Below are positions 5,152 through 11,756 of a DNA stretch of 64,000 nucleotides, piece by piece. Where the stretch lies: the NCBI RefSeq assembly GCF_022846255.1, contig NZ_AP025682.1. One strand, given 5' to 3'. The translations under genes were made by a program, and so were the position numbers. Origin of the DNA: Escherichia coli. Lineage in GTDB: Bacteria > Pseudomonadota > Gammaproteobacteria > Enterobacterales > Enterobacteriaceae. The notes beneath the pieces are model-generated. The model ran no database searches, was not told where the DNA came from, and saw nothing but the letters and a program-made list of their open reading frames with translations. Within the stretch, counting starts at the first letter, position 1. Every line of letters starts with the position of its first letter.

Positions 5152-6045
5152 ATGAATATTGAACTTCGTCATCTGCGTTACTTTGTTGCGGTTGCAGAAG
5201 AGCTGCATTTCGGGCGCGCCGCTGCCCGCCTGAATATTTCGCAACCACCGCTAAGTCAGCAGATTCAGGCGCTGGAGCAACAAATTGGTGCCCGACTGCT
5301 GGCACGGACCAATCGCAGTGTATTGCTGACGGAAGCAGGAAAACAGTTTCTTGTAGATAGTCGGCAAATCCTGTCTATGGTGGATGATGCTGCCGCTCGC
5401 GCTGAAAGGCTGCATCAGGGCGAAGCGGGGGAGTTGCGCATTGGTTTTACTTCGTCCGCTCCTTTTATTCGGGCGGTGTCCGATACGTTATCGCTGTTTC
5501 GCCGTGATTATCCCGATGTCCATTTACAAACCCGCGAAATGAACACTCGCGAGCAAATCGCTCCGCTCATTGAAGGAACGCTGGATATGGGATTGCTGCG
5601 TAACACAGCGTTACCGGAGACGCTTGAACACGCAGTCATCGTCCATGAACCGCTTATGGCGATGATCCCGCACGATCATCCCCTAGCAAATAACCCGAGT
5701 GTAACGCTGGCTGAACTGGCGAAAGAACCCTTTGTCTTTTTTGATCCGCACGTCGGAACAGGGCTGTATGACGATATTCTCGGGCTGATGAGACGTTACA
5801 ATTTGACGCCCGTCATCACTCAGGAGGTGGGTGAGGCAATGACCATCATCGGTCTGGTTTCCGCTGGTCTGGGTGTTTCAATTTTGCCTGCGTCATTTAA
5901 ACGTGTTCAGCTCAACGAAATGCGCTGGGTGCCGATTGCTGAAGAGGATGCGGTTTCTGAAATGTGGTTGGTCTGGCCGAAACATCATGAACAAAGTCCG
6001 GCTGCGCGTAACTTTCGTATTCATCTGCTGAATGCTCTCAGGTGA
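5152..6045 (+). CDS. ynfL: LysR-family transcriptional regulator YnfL
   Basis: 297 aa, N-terminal HTH (LRYFVAVAEELHFGRAA), divergent from ynfM. Confidence 0.9.
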   Translation: MNIELRHLRYFVAVAEELHFGRAAARLNISQPPLSQQIQALEQQIGARLLARTNRSVLLTEAGKQFLVDSRQILSMVDDAAARAERLHQGEAGELRIGFTSSAPFIRAVSDTLSLFRRDYPDVHLQTREMNTREQIAPLIEGTLDMGLLRNTALPETLEHAVIVHEPLMAMIPHDHPLANNPSVTLAELAKEPFVFFDPHVGTGLYDDILGLMRRYNLTPVITQEVGEAMTIIGLVSAGLGVSILPASFKRVQLNEMRWVPIAEEDAVSEMWLVWPKHHEQSPAARNFRIHLLNALR

Positions 6046-6179: not shown

Positions 6180-7400
6180 GTGGTTGCTGAAAATCAGCCT
6201 GGGCACATTGATCAAATAAAGCAGACCAACGCGGGCGCGGTTTATCGCCTGATTGATCAGCTTGGTCCAGTCTCGCGTATCGATCTTTCCCGTCTGGCGC
6301 AACTGGCTCCTGCCAGTATCACTAAAATTGTCCGTGAGATGCTCGAAGCACACCTGGTGCAAGAGCTGGAAATCAAAGAAGCGGGGAACCGTGGCCGTCC
6401 GGCAGTGGGGCTGGTGGTTGAAACTGAAGCCTGGCACTATCTTTCTCTGCGCATTAGTCGCGGGGAGATTTTCCTTGCTTTGCGCGATCTGAGCAGCAAA
6501 CTGGTAGTGGAGGAGTCGCAGGAACTGGCGTTAAAAGATGACTCGCCATTGCTGGAGCGTATCATTTCCCATATCGATCAGTTTTTTATCCGCCACCAGA
6601 AAAAACTTGAGCGTCTGACTTCGATTGCCATAACCTTGCCGGGAATTATTGATACGGAAAATGGTATTGTACATCGCATGCCGTTCTACGAGGATGTAAA
6701 AGAGATGCCGCTCGGCGAGGCGCTGGAGCAGCATACCGGCGTACCGGTTTATATTCAGCATGATATCAGCGCATGGACGATGGCTGAGGCCTTGTTTGGT
6801 GCCTCACGCGGGGCGCGCGATGTGATTCAGGTGGTTATCGATCACAACGTGGGGGCGGGCGTCATTACTGATGGTCATCTGCTACACGCAGGCAGCAGTA
6901 GCCTCGTGGAAATAGGCCACACACAGGTCGACCCGTATGGGAAACGCTGTTATTGCGGGAATCACGGTTGCCTTGAAACCATCGCCAGTGTGGACAGTAT
7001 TCTTGAGCTGGCACAGCTGCGTCTCAATCAATCCATGAGCTCGATGTTACATGGACAACCGTTAACCGTGGACTCATTGTGTCAGGCGGCATTGCGCGGC
7101 GATCTACTGGCAAAAGACATCATTACCGGGGTAGGCGCGCATGTCGGTCGCATTCTTGCCATCATGGTGAATTTATTTAACCCACAAAAAATACTGATTG
7201 GCTCACCGTTAAGTAAAGCGGCAGATATCCTCTTCCCAGTCATCTCGGACAGCATCCGTCAGCAGGCCCTTCCTGCGTATAGTCAGCACATTAGCGTTGA
7301 GAGTACTCAGTTTTCTAACCAGGGCACGATGGCAGGCGCTGCGCTGGTAAAAGACGCGATGTATAACGGTTCTTTGTTGATTCGTCTGTTGCAGGGTTAA
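6180..7400 (+). CDS. mlc: ROK-family global regulator Mlc (DgsA)
   Basis: 406 aa ORF with GTG start, ROK family with Cys/His zinc motif. Confidence 0.92.
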   Translation: MVAENQPGHIDQIKQTNAGAVYRLIDQLGPVSRIDLSRLAQLAPASITKIVREMLEAHLVQELEIKEAGNRGRPAVGLVVETEAWHYLSLRISRGEIFLALRDLSSKLVVEESQELALKDDSPLLERIISHIDQFFIRHQKKLERLTSIAITLPGIIDTENGIVHRMPFYEDVKEMPLGEALEQHTGVPVYIQHDISAWTMAEALFGASRGARDVIQVVIDHNVGAGVITDGHLLHAGSSSLVEIGHTQVDPYGKRCYCGNHGCLETIASVDSILELAQLRLNQSMSSMLHGQPLTVDSLCQAALRGDLLAKDIITGVGAHVGRILAIMVNLFNPQKILIGSPLSKAADILFPVISDSIRQQALPAYSQHISVESTQFSNQGTMAGAALVKDAMYNGSLLIRLLQG

Positions 7401-7524
7401 CATTTTTTAACTGTTCTACCAAAATTTGCGCTATCTCAATTTGGGCCAGGAAAGCATAACTTAGACTTTCAAGGTTAATTATTTTCCTGGTTTATATTTG
7501 TGAAGCATAACGGTGGAGTTAGTG

Positions 7525-8220
7525 ATGCTGAAGCGTTTCTTTATTACCGGTACAGACACTTCTGTAGGGAAAACGGTGGTTTCCCGCGCATTGCTACAAG
7601 CGTTAGCCTCCCAGGGAAAAACGGTTGCGGGATATAAACCCGTAGCGAAGGGGAGCAAAGAGACACCCGAAGGGCTGCGTAATAAAGATGCCCTGGTGTT
7701 GCAGAGTGTTTCAACCATCGAACTGCCTTATGAAGCAGTTAATCCTATCGCGTTAAGCGAAGAAGAAAGTAGCGTGGCGCACAGTTGCCCAATCAATTAC
7801 ACCCTCATTTCAAACGGCCTGGCAAACCTGACCGATAAAGTCGATCATGTCGTGGTAGAAGGGACTGGCGGCTGGCGCAGTCTGATGAATGATTTGCGTC
7901 CGCTCTCTGAATGGGTGGTGCAGGAACAACTGCCGGTGTTGATGGTTGTCGGTATTCAGGAAGGTTGCATTAACCATGCACTGCTAACAGCTCAGGCGAT
8001 TGCCAACGACGGGCTGCCGCTCATTGGCTGGGTGGCTAACCGAATCAACCCAGGACTGGCGCATTATGCGGAAATCATTGATGTGCTCGGTAAAAAACTT
8101 CCGGCACCGCTCATTGGTGAACTGCCTTATCTGCCGCGCGCCGAACAGCGTGAACTGGGGCAATACATCCGCTTAGCTATGCTTCGCAGTGTGCTGGCGG
8201 TAGATAGAGTCACGGTGTAA
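7525..8220 (+). CDS. ynfK: dethiobiotin synthetase paralog YnfK
   Basis: 231 aa from [17 protein letters not shown] (P-loop); track ORF begins 4 codons upstream at GTG. Confidence 0.85.
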
Positions 8221-9429
8221 CGTCCGCGAAATTACCGACGCAATTACGCAGGCAATCAATAAACCGGGGAGTAGCTGATACTCCCCGGTCATTTCACATA
8301 TCATCAACGTCGACATAATCGGCGCGTGCGTTGTTGCCGCCAACAGTGTCGCCATCCCTGTCAATCCGAGTAAAAGCGTAATTTCTTCGCCATCAGGGAA
8401 CCATAATCCCAGGCTACGACCATACAACATGCCAATGGCAAGACCGATAAATAGCGTCGGTGTAAAGACACCACCGGGCGCGCCAGAACCACTACTCGCC
8501 AGCACGGCAAACAGTTTACAGAGGAAGATCCCGGCAATGATCATTAACAGTGGCGGGGCGGTTAAAAAGGATTGTACGGTGCTATAGCCGTTGCCCCACA
8601 CTGCAGGTGTGAACAGGGAAAGCAGACCCACGATCAACCCGCCCAGTGCCAGTTGCCAGGGCGGCGCAAGTTTGAGACTTACAAATCCACGATGACAGGC
8701 GTTCATTAACGTTAACAACAGTGGTCCGCACAGACCTGCCAGCACACCTGTACTGATAATCAGCGCATAGTCACGAGCCTGAACCGTCACTGAGAGTTGT
8801 ACGCTGTAGAGTAACGCGTCGCTATGATTAATAAGATTGCTAACCAGCAACGCCACGACGGCGGAAATAATCACCGGGCCGAGAGAGGCCAACATCATAG
8901 TGCCAAACAGCACTTCGGCTATAAATAAACTGCCAGCAAGCGGGGCGCGATAGGCCGCAGCCATTCCCGCCGCAGCTCCACAGGCGATCCATAATTTCCA
9001 CTCCTGGCGTGGCGTAAGACGTTGGGCAAAACACGAGGCTGCAAGGGCAGCTAAAAGAATCATCGCACCTTCGCGACCAATTGCACTGCCGCTGGTTACT
9101 ACCAGTAGAGAGGCAAGCGATTTAACCAGGCTTGCTGCGTAATCAAACTGACCATCGGTTTGCAACGCTTCCATGTAATCGGTCGGCGCATGAGGGCGTT
9201 GCTGGGTAAATTTCTGCCAGCCCATCAGCAACAAACCCGCCGCCAGTCCGCCGAGCGCCGGGGTTAGCAGCCGTCGCCATGGGGAAAGATTTGTAGCTGC
9301 ATTGACCAGACTGCCGGAGTCATTATTGAGGAACAACCACTCCAGTAGCAGCATTGCATGACGAAACCCGGCAACGGCAAAGGCCGCGAGAATACCGACG
9401 ACTGTTGCGATAAGCAGACGGCGGAACAT
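8173..9429 (-). CDS. clcB: ClC-family voltage-gated chloride channel ClcB
   Basis: 418 aa from [11 protein letters not shown]; ClC motifs GSGIP/GREG-like; track ORF extends 20 codons upstream. Confidence 0.88.
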
Positions 9430-9625
9430 AGTGCGCAGATCCGGATAGATGTGTAGATAATGCATGAGCAGAAATGGGCAATGAAACACGGGCGACTATT
9501 TTGCGGCAAAAGAGGCCAGCCGCAAAAGCAGTGCGTGCTTTAAGAGATAAAAAAAACGTGACACTGTAACCTATTAATTGCCGAATTGCGTGTAATCGTC
9601 ACCATCCGGCAATAATACGGTGATC

Positions 9626-10240
9626 CTATCGAAACAGCGGTTTAACCGCGACAGGAATCAACAGTTGTGATTGCCATTGCGCCAGCGTTAAGCGAGCGAG
9701 TTCACCCAGTGCACGGTAGAAAGGGTGTTCTGCTTTTTCGATAAAAACGTCAAGAAAACGTGTTGACCACGGAAAAAGGTGCCATGCCAGCAATTCTTCG
9801 CATTCTGTCTGGCGACCATTCTCCGCCAACCACGCAGCCATCAGCAGCAGTGAACCAAAATGATCTTCCGGTTCGTTTTGCTTCATTTCGAACTGAATTC
9901 CTTTCTCGCGCATCCACTGACGAAGTGCCAATGTTGAATCGCCAAACAGCACAGATTCGCGATCCAGCCAGACCGATCCCCACGGCGGAGACGGCAGTGC
10001 CCACGGGCCGACAAACAAACGCTGCCAGGCCTGGGCGTGAGTCTCTTCACTCTGTGTCTGAAAAGCCGTCACCAGCGGCGCTAATGACGCTTCTGGTAGA
10101 GGCCACTGAGTTTCCCAGCCGTCACGGGTGAGTACCGCAACCAGAGGTGCGGCTTCTGCACTCTCTGGAGCGTAATAAAACAGCGCGCCCAACACGCGCG
10201 CCGCAACAGAAAAATTATCTTGCTGTGAAAAATGGGTCAT
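9626..10240 (-). CDS. dmsD: Tat proofreading chaperone DmsD
   Basis: 204 aa from MTHFSQQDNF; TorD/DmsD family. Confidence 0.9.
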   Translation of the reverse strand: MTHFSQQDNFSVAARVLGALFYYAPESAEAAPLVAVLTRDGWETQWPLPEASLAPLVTAFQTQSEETHAQAWQRLFVGPWALPSPPWGSVWLDRESVLFGDSTLALRQWMREKGIQFEMKQNEPEDHFGSLLLMAAWLAENGRQTECEELLAWHLFPWSTRFLDVFIEKAEHPFYRALGELARLTLAQWQSQLLIPVAVKPLFR

Positions 10241-10282: not shown

Positions 10283-11137
10283 TTAACCTGCAATAGCCAT
10301 TCCTACCGTCATGTGCAGGCCATAAAAGAGCACACGCCCGATTATCTCACCGCCAAGTATGAGGATTAGCCCCAGAACAAGTCCGGCAACGTGAGGTTCA
10401 CGGCGACGAATGAGCGGACAAAGCCAGCATCCAAGACCTGCGCATAACAATACCACACGCCAGACCTGTAAGGAGGCGTAATCTGGTACCAGTGTGCTGG
10501 CTTGTTGTACGGATGAGTGAATAGACGCCAGAGACAAACCTTGCAGCACAATCAACCCGGCACAAGCGATCAGCGCCAGAATGCTAATGATGGCAAATGG
10601 TGTGGTATTAAATGTAACGCGGGCTGCACGTAGAATTGTGGCAGCAAGTATTGGACCGCTCAACAATACCGTCAGGAAGAAAGCCAGCGTAGTGTAACCG
10701 TTATGCCAGGTTGGCACAGTGTCGATTTGATACACGCAGGTCATCATCCAGACGAAAATGACGCCGAGCGCCATGCTGACAAGTAACCAGAGTTTCCCCA
10801 ACGCTTGCGGCATTTTACCGATGACCGCCACCAGCCACCATAATCCGCCAACGGCAAAAAATATGGAACCGGCAGCAATCTCGTTACTCAGACCAGAAGC
10901 TCCGATTCTATTCAGCGAGTTAAACGCCCGCAGTGGCGATCCCAGGTGCATGACAGAGGCAATAAACCCGATGCCCATCAACAGCCAGAGGAAAAACATG
11001 CCACGAATAATGTGCTGACGGTCTGCGTTATTTTTGGCGGCGAACCAGCCAATTCCGCTAACAATCAGCGCGCCTACTACGCATTGACCCAATACGGTAA
11101 AGATAACCAGTGGCCATTCATGCCATCCATTTCCCAT
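10283..11137 (-). CDS. ynfH: DmsC-like membrane anchor subunit YnfH
   Basis: 284 aa from MGNGWHEWPLVIF; the 364-aa track ORF is an upstream extension overlapping ynfG. Confidence 0.85.
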   Translation of the reverse strand: MGNGWHEWPLVIFTVLGQCVVGALIVSGIGWFAAKNNADRQHIIRGMFFLWLLMGIGFIASVMHLGSPLRAFNSLNRIGASGLSNEIAAGSIFFAVGGLWWLVAVIGKMPQALGKLWLLVSMALGVIFVWMMTCVYQIDTVPTWHNGYTTLAFFLTVLLSGPILAATILRAARVTFNTTPFAIISILALIACAGLIVLQGLSLASIHSSVQQASTLVPDYASLQVWRVVLLCAGLGCWLCPLIRRREPHVAGLVLGLILILGGEIIGRVLFYGLHMTVGMAIAG

Positions 11138-11138
11138 T

Positions 11139-11756
11139 TTACACTTCCTCCGGATTAGCCAGATAACCAGTGGTATCGCCGGTCGGGCGGCTGTTGGCGT
11201 TAGGTTTGATAACGATATTGGGTTTTGTGAAATGCGCGCGCGGTAGTGGCGCGACGGCAGCAAGAGTGCCGTGCTTCTGGCGCAGCTCTTCAATTGGACC
11301 GAACTCAAGTGCACGCAGCGGGCAGGATTCGACACATATGGGTTGTTTCCCCTCGGCGACGCGCGAATAACAACCATCGCACTTCGTCATGTGTCCTTTT
11401 TCAGCATTGTACTGTGGCGCGCCGTACGGACAAGCCATGTGGCAGTAGCGGCAGCCGATACAAACATCTTCATCAACCACCACAAAGCCATCTTCACGCT
11501 TATGCATTGCGCCGCTGGGGCAGACTTTTGTACATGCGGGGTCATCGCAATGGTTACAGGAGATGGAGAGATAATAAGCGAACACGTTCTGGTGCCAGAC
11601 GCCATTATCTTCCTGCCAGTCGCCGCCAGCATATTCATAAATACGGCGGAAACTGACTTCCGGGCCAAGATCTTTAAAATCTTTGCACGCCAGTTCGCAG
11701 GTTTTACAGCCAGTACAGCGGCTTGAATCGATAAAAAATCCATATTGTGTGGTCAT
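11139..11756 (-). CDS. ynfG: 4Fe-4S ferredoxin-type subunit YnfG (DmsB paralog)
   Basis: 205 aa with four Cys clusters (CxxCxxCxxxCP). Confidence 0.9.
   Translation of the reverse strand: MTTQYGFFIDSSRCTGCKTCELACKDFKDLGPEVSFRRIYEYAGGDWQEDNGVWHQNVFAYYLSISCNHCDDPACTKVCPSGAMHKREDGFVVVDEDVCIGCRYCHMACPYGAPQYNAEKGHMTKCDGCYSRVAEGKQPICVESCPLRALEFGPIEELRQKHGTLAAVAPLPRAHFTKPNIVIKPNANSRPTGDTTGYLANPEEV

Follow-up and report, generated by a model that had tools for sequence, protein, structure and literature searches.

How do two convergent genes end their messages when their coding sequences run into one another and leave no DNA in between? The question is raised by ynfK and clcB, which lie in a 64,000-nt stretch of the Escherichia coli contig NZ_AP025682.1 (the window, to which positions refer unless K-12 is named) and which a preliminary description had read as ending tail to tail, ynfK (+) at 8220 and clcB (−) at 8173, with 48 nt in common and no room for terminators. 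The open reading frames, the sequence and the K-12 annotation agree on that geometry (Table 1). The arrangement is real, ancient and already known: the reference annotation shows it, and the pair has been listed as a convergent excludon. As a finding the overlap is not new, and its modest value is that of a clean teaching example. What seems to be the only addition made here is a conserved RNA hairpin inside clcB that would end the ynfK message.

The overlap and its two genes

Where ynfK and clcB share their 3′ ends on opposite strands, they do so in exact codon-for-codon antisense register, such that the ynfK codons are the reverse complements of clcB codons throughout the overlap and the TAA stop of each gene lies opposite a TTA leucine codon of its partner. 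The ynfK stop occupies 8218–8220 on the + strand; that of clcB occupies 8173–8175 on the − strand and reads TTA on the + strand. An identical 48-nt overlap is found in K-12 RefSeq (clcB 1665315..1666571 (+), bidA 1666524..1667219 (−)) and in the PGAP annotation of the closest genome, strain MS20657, and about 5,420 of 5,426 complete E. coli genomes carry the overlap.

YnfK belongs, by homology, to the dethiobiotin synthetase (BioD) family: its residues 3–220 align to residues 2–224 of the E. coli BioD structure 1a82 (E 5e-65). BioD ends opposite YnfK residue 220, and residues 221–231 form a YnfK-specific tail; the idea that this tail is a mere run-on made by the overlap was rejected, its length and DR motif persisting in genomes without clcB. 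The gene is directly activated by FNR (PMC3688515), and a search for the FNR box TTGAT-N4-ATCAA with up to two mismatches gave no match within 7400–7525. ClcB can be assigned on its predicted domain content to the CLC chloride channel/antiporter family, the Voltage_CLC domain PF00654 being precomputed on all ClcB homologues retrieved, including clusters 99% identical to the query. PGAP places its start 12 codons upstream of the K-12 start (9465), and the longest open reading frame begins at GTG 9489; its C-terminus, ...SRTL(R/H)xDSIY(R/G)QH, is kept across genera. A first homologue search with ClcB returned only close relatives (at least 74% identity) that were of no use as a control, and a representative-sequence search was used instead; distant ClcB-like proteins, too, end a few residues past the SIY motif.

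Table 1. Features of the ynfK–clcB locus, in window coordinates (d, terminator score).
Feature	Position	Strand	Details
ynfK (renamed bidA, b1593), BioD paralogue	7525..8220	+	231 codons + TAA; start ATG 7525
clcB (b1592), CLC-type chloride channel/antiporter paralogue	8173..9429	−	418 codons + TAA with K-12 start (MFRRLL)
48-nt dual-coding overlap	8173..8220	both	ynfK codons 217–231 + stop opposite clcB codons 404–418 + stop
Untranslated ynfK 3′ spacer, 43 nt	8221..8263	+	antisense to clcB codons 390–403; includes position 8230
T-rich run after hairpin, clcB strand	8251..8263	−	TTTATTGATTGCC; d = +15.6
GC-rich stem-loop	8264..8288	+	arm CCGGGGAGTA 8264–8273, loop GCTGA 8274–8278, arm TACTCCCCGG 8279–8288
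Post-hairpin tail, ynfK strand	8289..8297	+	TCATTTCAC; poor U-tract, fixed by clcB codons Cys-Glu-Met-Thr

Selection on both reading frames

Comparison with orthologues, the check proposed in the preliminary description, bears out both stop codons as genuine and conserved. Neither gene ends earlier in such a way as to abolish the overlap: ynfK is 231 codons long, without exception, in the 80 species retrieved, and clcB, shorter in a few genera, never ends before the ynfK stop. Among 61 Enterobacteriaceae genomes with ynfK and an adjacent, intact clcB, none lacks the overlap, which measures 48 nt in 33 genomes, 45 nt in 14, 66 nt in 10, 27 nt in three and 39 nt in one; the position of the ynfK stop is fixed and that of clcB shifts, giving the range of 27–66 nt. 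The gene order ynfK–clcB is kept across most Enterobacteriaceae. A random reading frame is expected to meet a stop about every 21 codons, so a run-on of 16 codons could arise by chance in any one sequence; conservation, as read from these alignments, rules out a chance origin of the overlap.

Codon choice in ynfK differs according to whether its partner is there. Beside clcB, the ynfK stop codon is TAA in 53 cases, TAG in 12 and TGA in none, as compared with TGA in nine, TAG in three and TAA in three where clcB is absent or decayed. Arg228 is encoded by rare AGA (39) or CGA (17) where clcB is adjacent, because Ser408 of ClcB, lying opposite, forces the choice; without intact clcB the codons are CGC (5), AGA (4), CGT (4) and CGG (1). 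Val226, opposite the TAC codon of ClcB Tyr410, is GTA in 60 of 65. Synonymous diversity in ynfK is 0.27 in codons 221–230 versus about 0.5 elsewhere, and low values are confined to codons 1–10 and 221–231. At the level of sequence comparison, the data show that both frames are under purifying selection through the overlap and that the overlap is older than the Enterobacteriaceae radiation. For teaching, the locus offers 48 bp under purifying selection in two antisense frames, with the partner dictating rare arginine codons and the choice of stop.

Convergent overlaps form a known class, and most of them are, as far as is known, shorter than 48 nt. In E. coli, 75 convergent overlapping pairs were counted among 4,131 adjacent gene pairs (PMC4161906). 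The ynfK–clcB pair likewise consists of annotated protein genes on opposite strands with common 3′ ends, and the shifting of stop codons from which such overlaps arise is seen here at the clcB stop only (overlap 27–66 nt). Unlike typical convergent overlaps, that of ynfK and clcB is kept in every both-intact Enterobacteriaceae genome examined, with codon-level selection on both frames.

A conserved stem-loop written in clcB codons

The statement that there is no room for terminators is misleading. Intergenic DNA between ynfK and clcB is truly absent, as was implied, so the 3′ end signals of ynfK sit within clcB; such signals do occur inside the partner gene, namely a stem-loop at 8264–8288 and a Rho-dependent region 10 nt past the ynfK stop. 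The stem-loop starts 43 nt beyond that stop, within the clcB coding sequence, and is written in the clcB codons Thr381-Gly-Glu-Tyr-Gln-Leu-Leu-Pro-Gly389. Its 10-bp helix alone has a free energy of −19.1 kcal/mol. When the ynfK 3′ region is folded on the + strand (90 nt, z −4.4), the minimum-energy structure contains the hairpin; a comparable helix forms on the − strand (71 nt, z −3.6), and the hairpin folds in every genus tested. In a consensus promoter and terminator scan of 7000–10000 the counts were not above those of shuffles, the sole terminator-like match near the overlap being the hairpin on the − strand; an Rfam search of 7300–9700 with E up to 1 gave two sub-threshold chance matches only.

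The stem is conserved, with covariation. Across 61 distinct sequences, 93% of cells in the stem are paired, versus 20–44% in slid controls. A compensatory G-C to C-G swap couples position 1 of the ClcB Glu/Gln383 codon with the synonymous position 3 of Leu387, and only about two events on the tree are needed for it. Of 80 invariant fourfold-degenerate clcB codons, with a median of about 18 third-position changes, two alone have none, namely Thr381 (ACC) and Pro388 (CCC), and Gly382 is GGG in 51 genomes, GGA in nine, GGC in one and GGT in none.

As the overall pairing is alike on both strands (93.4% in the ynfK sense vs 94.6% in the clcB sense), core pairs 5, 6 and 8, together with genomes that have lost clcB, are what assigns the hairpin to one strand; total percent paired was considered as a criterion and discarded as uninformative, since the strands can be told apart only by wobbles at individual pairs and by the genomes without clcB. 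In ynfK-sense RNA, departures at the core pairs amount to 23 wobble and 7 unpaired cells, whereas in clcB-sense RNA the same departures give 2 wobble and 28 unpaired. Stem pair 9 behaves in the opposite manner, with a U.G wobble in the clcB sense and a C.A mismatch in the ynfK sense.

In two Citrobacter genomes (L010 and L017) and one Lelliottia genome (L057), clcB is cleanly missing, and the residual 56–80 nt between ynfK and the next gene carry a lineage-appropriate stem, the homology of which is judged from 8 + 8 stem bases and short flanks. The tail after the stem in both Citrobacter genomes is T7–T8, with terminator scores d of +39 and +51. Three further genomes (L011, L052 and L059) retain remnants of clcB; compared with the nearest intact relative, their stems are the same at 46 of 48 bases, with identities of 70–74% in the spacer and 33–67% in the loop.

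How the ynfK message may end

On the ynfK strand the hairpin is followed by the tail UCAUUUCAC, with a tail score of 1.7 and a terminator score d of −11.6, and d on the + strand is below zero in every clcB-bearing genome tested. Of the clcB codons under the tail, Glu379 is GAA in 55 of 61 and Cys378 is TGT in 51 of 61. Examined as an intrinsic terminator, the ynfK strand thus has the GC-rich stem-loop and lacks a U-rich tract after the stem, except in the two clcB-less Citrobacter genomes; canonical intrinsic termination of ynfK at the hairpin appears unlikely from these features.

A Rho-dependent termination region, described as ‘primary’ for ynfK and antisense to clcB, peaks at K-12 1666514 (−), 10 nt past the ynfK stop (PMC7815308, supplementary file 2); this corresponds to window position 8230 and is approximate because the score uses 800-nt windows. 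Reads upstream and downstream of that position number 85 and 11 in untreated cells and 292 and 159 with bicyclomycin, giving, from low read counts in 800-nt windows, a Rho score of 4.2 (p 1.5e-6), that is, a 4.2-fold rise in read-through with bicyclomycin (PMC7815308). The Term-seq tables of the same study (Adams et al.), made from aerobic cultures whereas ynfK is FNR-dependent, contain nothing near the hairpin, and the TERMITe supplements have no entry for the ynfK 3′ end. On the + strand at 8221–8500, the C/G ratio in 80-nt windows is 1.15–1.67, a slight surplus of C of the kind usual for antisense coding sequence.

Where Rho terminates transcription, the resulting 3′ ends are marked and protected by stable stem-loops that lack U-tracts (Dar & Sorek 2018, PMC6061677). 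The end of ynfK has the same elements, a stable stem-loop without a U-rich tract near the stop, in a region with published bicyclomycin-sensitive read-through. It differs from those ends in that the putative end-forming stem-loop is encoded by synonymous positions in the codons of another gene.

The best explanation, and one we consider probable, is that the locus is a dual-coding overlap under selection, in which a hairpin embedded in clcB defines or protects the ynfK 3′ end and Rho does much of the termination. The ribosome would come off at the UAA of ynfK, and RNA polymerase would continue for 43 nt antisense to clcB before transcribing the stable stem-loop, which is encoded by synonymous codon choice in a conserved ClcB motif. 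The stem-loop would then define and protect the 3′ end of the ynfK mRNA; Rho would carry out much of the actual termination, in keeping with the bicyclomycin data, and the weak UCAUUU tract may contribute some intrinsic termination. Transcripts of clcB would have to pass through the hairpin and the ynfK tail and, because no conserved structure lies past the clcB stop, would presumably stop by Rho or by polymerase collision within antisense ynfK. A terminator for clcB was sought inside ynfK, where the − strand at 8030–8175 folds no better than shuffles (z +0.8) and ynfK synonymous diversity has no dip outside codons 1–10 and 221–231 that would mark one. Whenever both genes are transcribed, their mRNAs would be complementary over at least about 120 nt (8173 to about 8295).

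On this model, the locus would also illustrate how a putative RNA 3′ end hairpin can be encoded by nothing but synonymous sites in a neighbouring gene; the hairpin stays when clcB is lost and acquires a proper U-tract once the coding constraint is lifted. It further calls for caution in recoding or deletion work, as ‘silent’ changes at clcB codons 381–389, or a clean deletion of clcB, are likely to alter 3′ end formation of the ynfK mRNA.

Alternative explanations

A tentative possibility is that the pair is a regulatory excludon: when FNR drives ynfK under anaerobic conditions, clcB would be repressed, or the effect would run the other way, by colliding polymerases and by RNase III cutting the duplex of about 120 nt or more that the two mRNAs form. 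Their complementarity is obligatory, ynfK is under direct FNR activation, and the conserved gene order would fit such a role. Overlap of the two transcripts finds support in the ExcludonFinder catalogue (NAR 2025, PMC12288877), where clcB-bidA is among 165 convergent excludons called in MG1655 from RNA-seq coverage; pairs listed in Table 1 of that work, as this one is, were called in 50% or more of the RNA-seq samples. However, ExcludonFinder calls any pair with overlapping coverage boundaries, and where coding sequences overlap the transcripts must do so as well, provided that each gene is transcribed as far as its stop codon. Convergent excludons such as the E. coli precedent mscL-arfA (PMC10070815) have the same transcript overlap, and in them, too, one gene carries its 3′ end signal within the partner's transcription unit; typical excludons overlap in their 3′ UTRs, whereas ynfK and clcB overlap in coding sequence, with the hairpin inside the partner reading frame. 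Excludons are named for mutual exclusion and RNase III processing; ynfK–clcB has the layout of a convergent excludon, and the antisense interference raised in the preliminary description is plausible. Against a regulatory role, the literature yielded no reciprocal-expression, RNase III, dsRNA or collision data for clcB-ynfK. Moreover, clcB has been lost independently in several lineages with ynfK unchanged, so ynfK does not need its partner, and Rho curtails transcription of the ynfK strand into clcB, limiting interference.

It is unlikely that both genes use the hairpin as a canonical intrinsic terminator, perhaps a bidirectional one, at which the stem-loop would pause polymerase and head-on collision would complete termination. 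Such a role is suggested by the GC-rich 10-bp stem of −19 kcal/mol, the terminator-like match on the − strand, the A-rich run upstream and partly T-rich run downstream, and the textbook terminator seen in the two Citrobacter genomes once clcB is gone. Overlapping bidirectional terminators between convergent genes have been described (Ju et al. 2019, as summarised in bioRxiv 10.1101/2022.10.23.513370; model pair ynaJ-uspE), and the collision model needs a stem-loop in the overlap region. Like them, the hairpin is one palindrome between converging polymerases, transcribed and foldable from both strands; but those bidirectional terminators sit between the stop codons and are reported to be Rho-independent, whereas the ynfK hairpin is located before the clcB stop in a region reported as Rho-dependent. 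Being upstream of that stop, the hairpin could serve only ynfK. On the − strand in Escherichia, the hairpin and its T-run resemble an intrinsic terminator inside clcB, located 87 nt before the clcB stop, where it cannot be a productive clcB terminator; the T-run is Escherichia-specific, the score being negative in Salmonella, Citrobacter and Klebsiella, and the codons under the run vary. On the + strand, the tail is sub-threshold in all clcB-bearing genomes, and the effect of bicyclomycin points to Rho rather than to factor-independent termination.

We regard as quite doubtful a reading in which the hairpin is a dual insulator, forming the 3′ end in the ynfK sense and stopping only untranslated clcB transcripts, with FNR-induced ynfK shutting off clcB by collision and duplex cleavage. 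Were this so, the excludon would be conserved and physiologically meaningful, and would tie biotin synthesis to chloride/proton transport.

A role of the hairpin in the clcB mRNA, either as a translation-dependent intragenic terminator or pause stopping untranslated clcB transcripts before they reach into ynfK, or as a ribosome-pausing or stability element, is very unlikely. It would account for the better U-tract on the − strand in Escherichia and for pair 9, which retains U-A or U.G only in the clcB sense, and overall pairing is as high in that sense. However, departures at the core pairs are mismatched in the clcB sense (28 vs 7 unpaired cells) and the − strand T-run is unconserved beyond Escherichia, while persistence of the stem after deletion or truncation of clcB, with a T-run gained on the + strand in two genomes, is inexplicable by a clcB-specific role.

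Highly improbable, and already looking refuted, is the view that the hairpin is a functionless by-product of the conserved ClcB motif (EMTG.Y.LLPG) and codon bias. The stem is indeed built from conserved Thr-Gly and Pro-Gly residues, and the G/C swap represents only about two events. However, CCC and GGG are not the preferred proline and glycine codons elsewhere in clcB (Pro370: CCG 35, CCA 16, CCC 9; Gly358: GGA 32, GGG 14, GGT 8, GGC 7), and a complete lack of synonymous change is seen only at two stem codons among the 80 comparable sites. The hairpin was also looked for in distant ClcB-like genes away from ynfK and found in none, even in one that shares the motif (TGQY.PLPG) and has other codons, and the stem outlives destruction of the clcB frame.

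That one protein ends upstream and the overlap is an annotation artefact of frame run-on is scarcely credible: YnfK is 11 residues longer than its paralogue BioD at the C-terminus, and the ClcB tail after ...DSIYRQH varies in length, but the length of the YnfK tail does not vary among 80 species and its VDR motif persists even without clcB, ClcB is conserved to DSIYRQH, well within the overlap, with the shortest ClcB still overlapping by 27 nt, and codon choice in each gene is visibly forced by the other.

Results

The gene order ynfL-mlc-ynfK-clcB-dmsD-ynfH is found in the orientation opposite to K-12, and positions 7400-9600 are 99.4% identical to the best RefSeq E. coli match. The tail-to-tail ynfK/clcB overlap claimed in the preliminary description is real, as both ORFs span it and K-12 RefSeq annotates the same one (clcB 1665315..1666571 (+), bidA 1666524..1667219 (-); window position = 1674744 - K-12 position). 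A 151-nt segment comprising the overlap and its flank was found in 5,420 of 5,426 complete E. coli genomes, with both gene annotations covering it among the matches listed in full.

Coordinates of the features discussed
Feature	Position	Strand	Description
ynfK	7525-8220	+	start ATG, 231 codons, GGAG before start; K-12 name now bidA (b1593)
clcB (b1592)	9429 (K-12 start) to 8173 (end)	-	418 codons
Overlap	8173-8220		48 nt; identical in K-12 RefSeq annotation
Hairpin	8264-8288		perfect 10-bp GC-rich inverted repeat CCGGGGAGTA-GCTGA-TACTCCCCGG; begins 43 nt past ynfK stop, within clcB
T-rich run	8251-8263	-	UUUAUUGAUU / TTTATTGATT after stem; Escherichia only; predicted intrinsic terminator, d = +15.6

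Orthologs were surveyed at 80 loci, one genome per species (genera including Escherichia, Salmonella, Citrobacter, Klebsiella, Enterobacter, Kluyvera, Raoultella and Buttiauxella). ynfK is exactly 231 codons long at all 80, and the overlap is present in 61 of 61 genomes with an intact adjacent clcB, its length (48 nt in 33, 45 in 14, 66 in 10, 27 in three and 39 in one) varying wholly through the clcB stop. ClcB conservation runs to ...SRTL(R/H)xDSIY(R/G)QH, deep inside the overlap, and distant ClcB-like proteins (43-50% identity) likewise terminate a few residues past the SIY motif. The alignment of YnfK with E. coli BioD (structure 1a82) runs up to YnfK residue 220, opposite the BioD C-terminus; the last 11 YnfK residues, encoded by 33 of the 48 overlap nucleotides, are therefore a family-specific tail, whose length and (V/A)DR motif are kept even in genomes without clcB. 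Because ynfK length is fixed, ClcB is conserved into the overlap and the YnfK tail outlives clcB, both stops are genuine, and neither gene ends short of the overlap in orthologs. Stopping shortly after SIY is general in the ClcB subfamily; one distant member (45% identity, metagenome-assembled genome, L083 3751-3754) overlaps its convergent partner, a peptidase M28/M20 gene, by only 4 nt. Over the 80 loci YnfK is far better conserved than ClcB (86-99% vs 65-97%).

Within the overlap the codons of the two frames coincide exactly and are mutually reverse-complementary (ynfK: TTA GCT ATG CTT CGC AGT GTG CTG GCG GTA GAT AGA GTC ACG GTG TAA; clcB: TTA CAC CGT GAC TCT ATC TAC CGC CAG CAC ACT GCG AAG CAT AGC TAA) and each stop faces TTA (Leu) in the other gene. 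Codon usage indicates that both frames are under selection here. Next to clcB, ynfK ends in TAA (53) or TAG (12); TGA, which would change ClcB Leu404 to Ser, does not occur there but is the most frequent stop (9 of 15) in genomes whose clcB is missing or decayed. Arg228 of ynfK is encoded by the rare codons AGA (39) or CGA (17) when clcB is adjacent, the sole Arg codons whose complement preserves ClcB Ser408, and by CGC (5), AGA (4), CGT (4) or CGG (1) in genomes without intact clcB. Val226 is GTA in 60 of 65, facing ClcB Tyr410 TAC. Depressed synonymous diversity in ynfK is limited to codons 221-231 and 1-10. The latter (7525-7554; mean 0.29 vs about 0.5; Arg4 CGT in 65 of 65 genomes) probably reflect a translation-initiation constraint or mRNA 5' structure.

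The preliminary description also left no room for terminators between the genes. Intergenic space is indeed absent, but a hairpin sits inside clcB, encoded by codons Thr381-Gly-Glu-Tyr-Gln-Leu-Leu-Pro-Gly389. Its helix energy is -19.1 kcal/mol. When the 3' region of ynfK (90 nt, z -4.4) or of any ortholog tested is folded, the minimum-energy structure includes the hairpin. Pairing holds in 93% of stem cells over 61 distinct sequences, vs 20-44% with the partner column slid. Stem pair 6 joins position 1 of ClcB codon 383 (Glu/Gln) to the synonymous position 3 of the Leu387 codon; it is G-C in 19 sequences and C-G in 34, a switch requiring about two events on the neighbour-joining tree. At pair 8, G-C gives way via G.U to A-U in three sequences. 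The strongest signal for the hairpin is synonymous constraint at its codons. Among the 80 strictly 4-fold degenerate clcB codons whose amino acid never varies, the median is about 18 third-position changes on the tree, and only Thr381 (ACC throughout) and Pro388 (CCC throughout), both in the stem, have zero. Gly382 is fifth lowest (GGG 51, GGA 9, GGC 1 and GGT 0 in 61 genomes); the preferred codons at the other Pro and Gly sites of clcB are CCG, GGA or GGC. A sub-threshold Rfam match to the Bacillus SR6 antitoxin RNA over the hairpin (8260-8335, +; 23.5 bits vs a gathering score of 55, E 0.49) was taken as chance stem-loop similarity.

Total stem pairing is alike on the two strands (93.4% for ynfK vs 94.6% for clcB). 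At core pairs 5, 6 and 8 of the stem, departures are G.U wobbles in ynfK-sense RNA (23 wobble, 7 unpaired cells) and A.C or C.U mismatches in clcB-sense RNA (2 wobble, 28 unpaired); for example, Gly382 accepts GGA and not the commoner GGC or GGT. At pair 9 the bias is reversed. The strand question appears to be settled by genomes in which clcB is lost or decayed. clcB is cleanly missing in Citrobacter L010 and L017 and Lelliottia L057 (L-numbers denote retrieved homologous loci), where homology to relatives ends at the ynfK stop and restarts about 1.37 kb later; within the remaining 56-80 nt lies the stem expected for each lineage, GGGCAG/CTGCCC in Lelliottia and Trabulsiella and GGGGAG/CTCCCC in Citrobacter, bordered by short stretches that also match. 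Downstream of the stem, L010 and L017 need no longer encode Glu-Met-Thr, and the sequence there has turned into T7-T8 (d +39 and +51), so that the ynfK strand now carries a textbook terminator. In L011, L052 and L059 clcB is reduced to its last 56-97 codons (54-64% amino-acid identity), and relative to the nearest intact relative 46 of 48 stem bases match, with 70-74% identity in the spacer and 33-67% in the loop. The hairpin is absent from three distant ClcB-like genes not adjoining a BioD paralog, one of which codes the same TGQY.PLPG motif as ACC GGC ... CCG GGG. Retention without intact clcB and absence away from the BioD paralog thus argue that the stem is selected independently of the ClcB protein, in association with ynfK.

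More widely, clcB is absent from L010, L017, L033, L040, L041, L047, L051, L057, L062, L063, L071, L073 and L079, leaves 3' remnants only in L011, L023, L052 and L059, and lies in two frames in L076; many Enterobacteriaceae lineages are affected, among them Kosakonia, Trabulsiella, Pseudescherichia, Lelliottia, Intestinirhabdus and part of Citrobacter and Raoultella. In these cases of clcB deletion or decay, ynfK remains intact (86-94% protein identity).

Discussion

The hairpin has several possible roles in ending transcription. A canonical intrinsic terminator on the ynfK strand is unlikely in clcB-bearing genomes, where the plus-strand tail, UCAUUUCAC, makes a poor U-tract and d, a d'Aubenton-Carafa-type score (energies from ViennaRNA), is negative. 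On the opposite strand, the Escherichia hairpin and T-run could terminate untranslated clcB transcripts; this predicted terminator lies within the clcB ORF, 87 nt before its stop, and the T-run is not conserved in other genera. Folding and ynfK synonymous diversity revealed neither structure nor constraint for a clcB terminator inside ynfK. Most simply read, the hairpin would be a protective stem-loop for a Rho-terminated ynfK mRNA 3' end, perhaps adding some weak intrinsic termination. Rho-terminated E. coli mRNAs end just past stable stem-loops without U-tracts, which shield them from 3' exonucleases (Dar and Sorek 2018, PMC6061677). A published Rho termination region, assigned to ynfK as primary and running antisense to clcB, has its most significant position at K-12 1666514 (-) (Adams et al. 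2021, PMC7815308 supplementary file 2), corresponding to window position 8230, 10 nt past the ynfK stop. Upstream/downstream reads there were 85/11 untreated and 292/159 with bicyclomycin (Rho score 4.2, p 1.5e-6), the 800-nt windows making the position approximate (PMC7815308). The stem-loop and Rho sensitivity fit this class; the aerobic Term-seq tables (PMC7815308) list no RNA 3' end near the hairpin, as expected since ynfK is directly activated by FNR (PMC3688515).

Antisense interference was raised previously as a possibility. When both genes are transcribed, their mRNAs are necessarily complementary across at least the stretch from 8173 to about 8295. The transcript overlap is published, clcB-bidA being one of the 165 convergent excludons that overlapping RNA-seq coverage boundaries define in MG1655 (PMC12288877, Table 1), a call that is nearly automatic for overlapping coding sequences. 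Mutual exclusion is putative; we found no study that examines, for this pair, whether expression is reciprocal, RNase III cleaves the duplex or polymerases collide. Loss or decay of clcB at 15 of 80 loci, in at least six genera and with ynfK unchanged, argues against strong regulatory dependence, as does the limiting of ynfK-strand transcription into clcB by Rho.

The ynfK/clcB overlap is thus real, ancient, and previously annotated and catalogued. It has all the tested defining features of a convergent overlapping gene pair, a class that is ordinary given the 75 such pairs in E. coli (PMC4161906), and we regard it as a tidy example and no new kind of system. The detail added here is a hairpin encoded at synonymous sites of clcB that persists after clcB loss.

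Several minor features of the locus were also recorded. Annotation of the clcB start differs: K-12 begins at MFRRLL (418 aa; 9429, - strand), PGAP in strain MS20657 12 codons upstream (430 aa, about 9465), and the longest ORF at a GTG at 9489 (438 aa); ClcB homolog clusters in databases span 393 to 459 aa. In MS20657, the closest RefSeq genome (L001 4384-4572), ynfH is a partial pseudogene followed directly by ynfD, which suggests a ynfEFG deletion, vs a full-length ynfH-containing ORF at 10283-11377 in the window (364 aa, opening some 80 codons ahead of MGNGWHEW, where ynfH begins). The LysR-type regulator HusR (YnfL) has a weak genomic-SELEX peak (intensity 72; K-12 old coordinate 1,664,668; no HusR box listed) within ynfK, between clcB and mlc (PMC12844172). 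By approximate conversion this peak falls near 8130; HusR/YnfL is encoded at 5152-6045.
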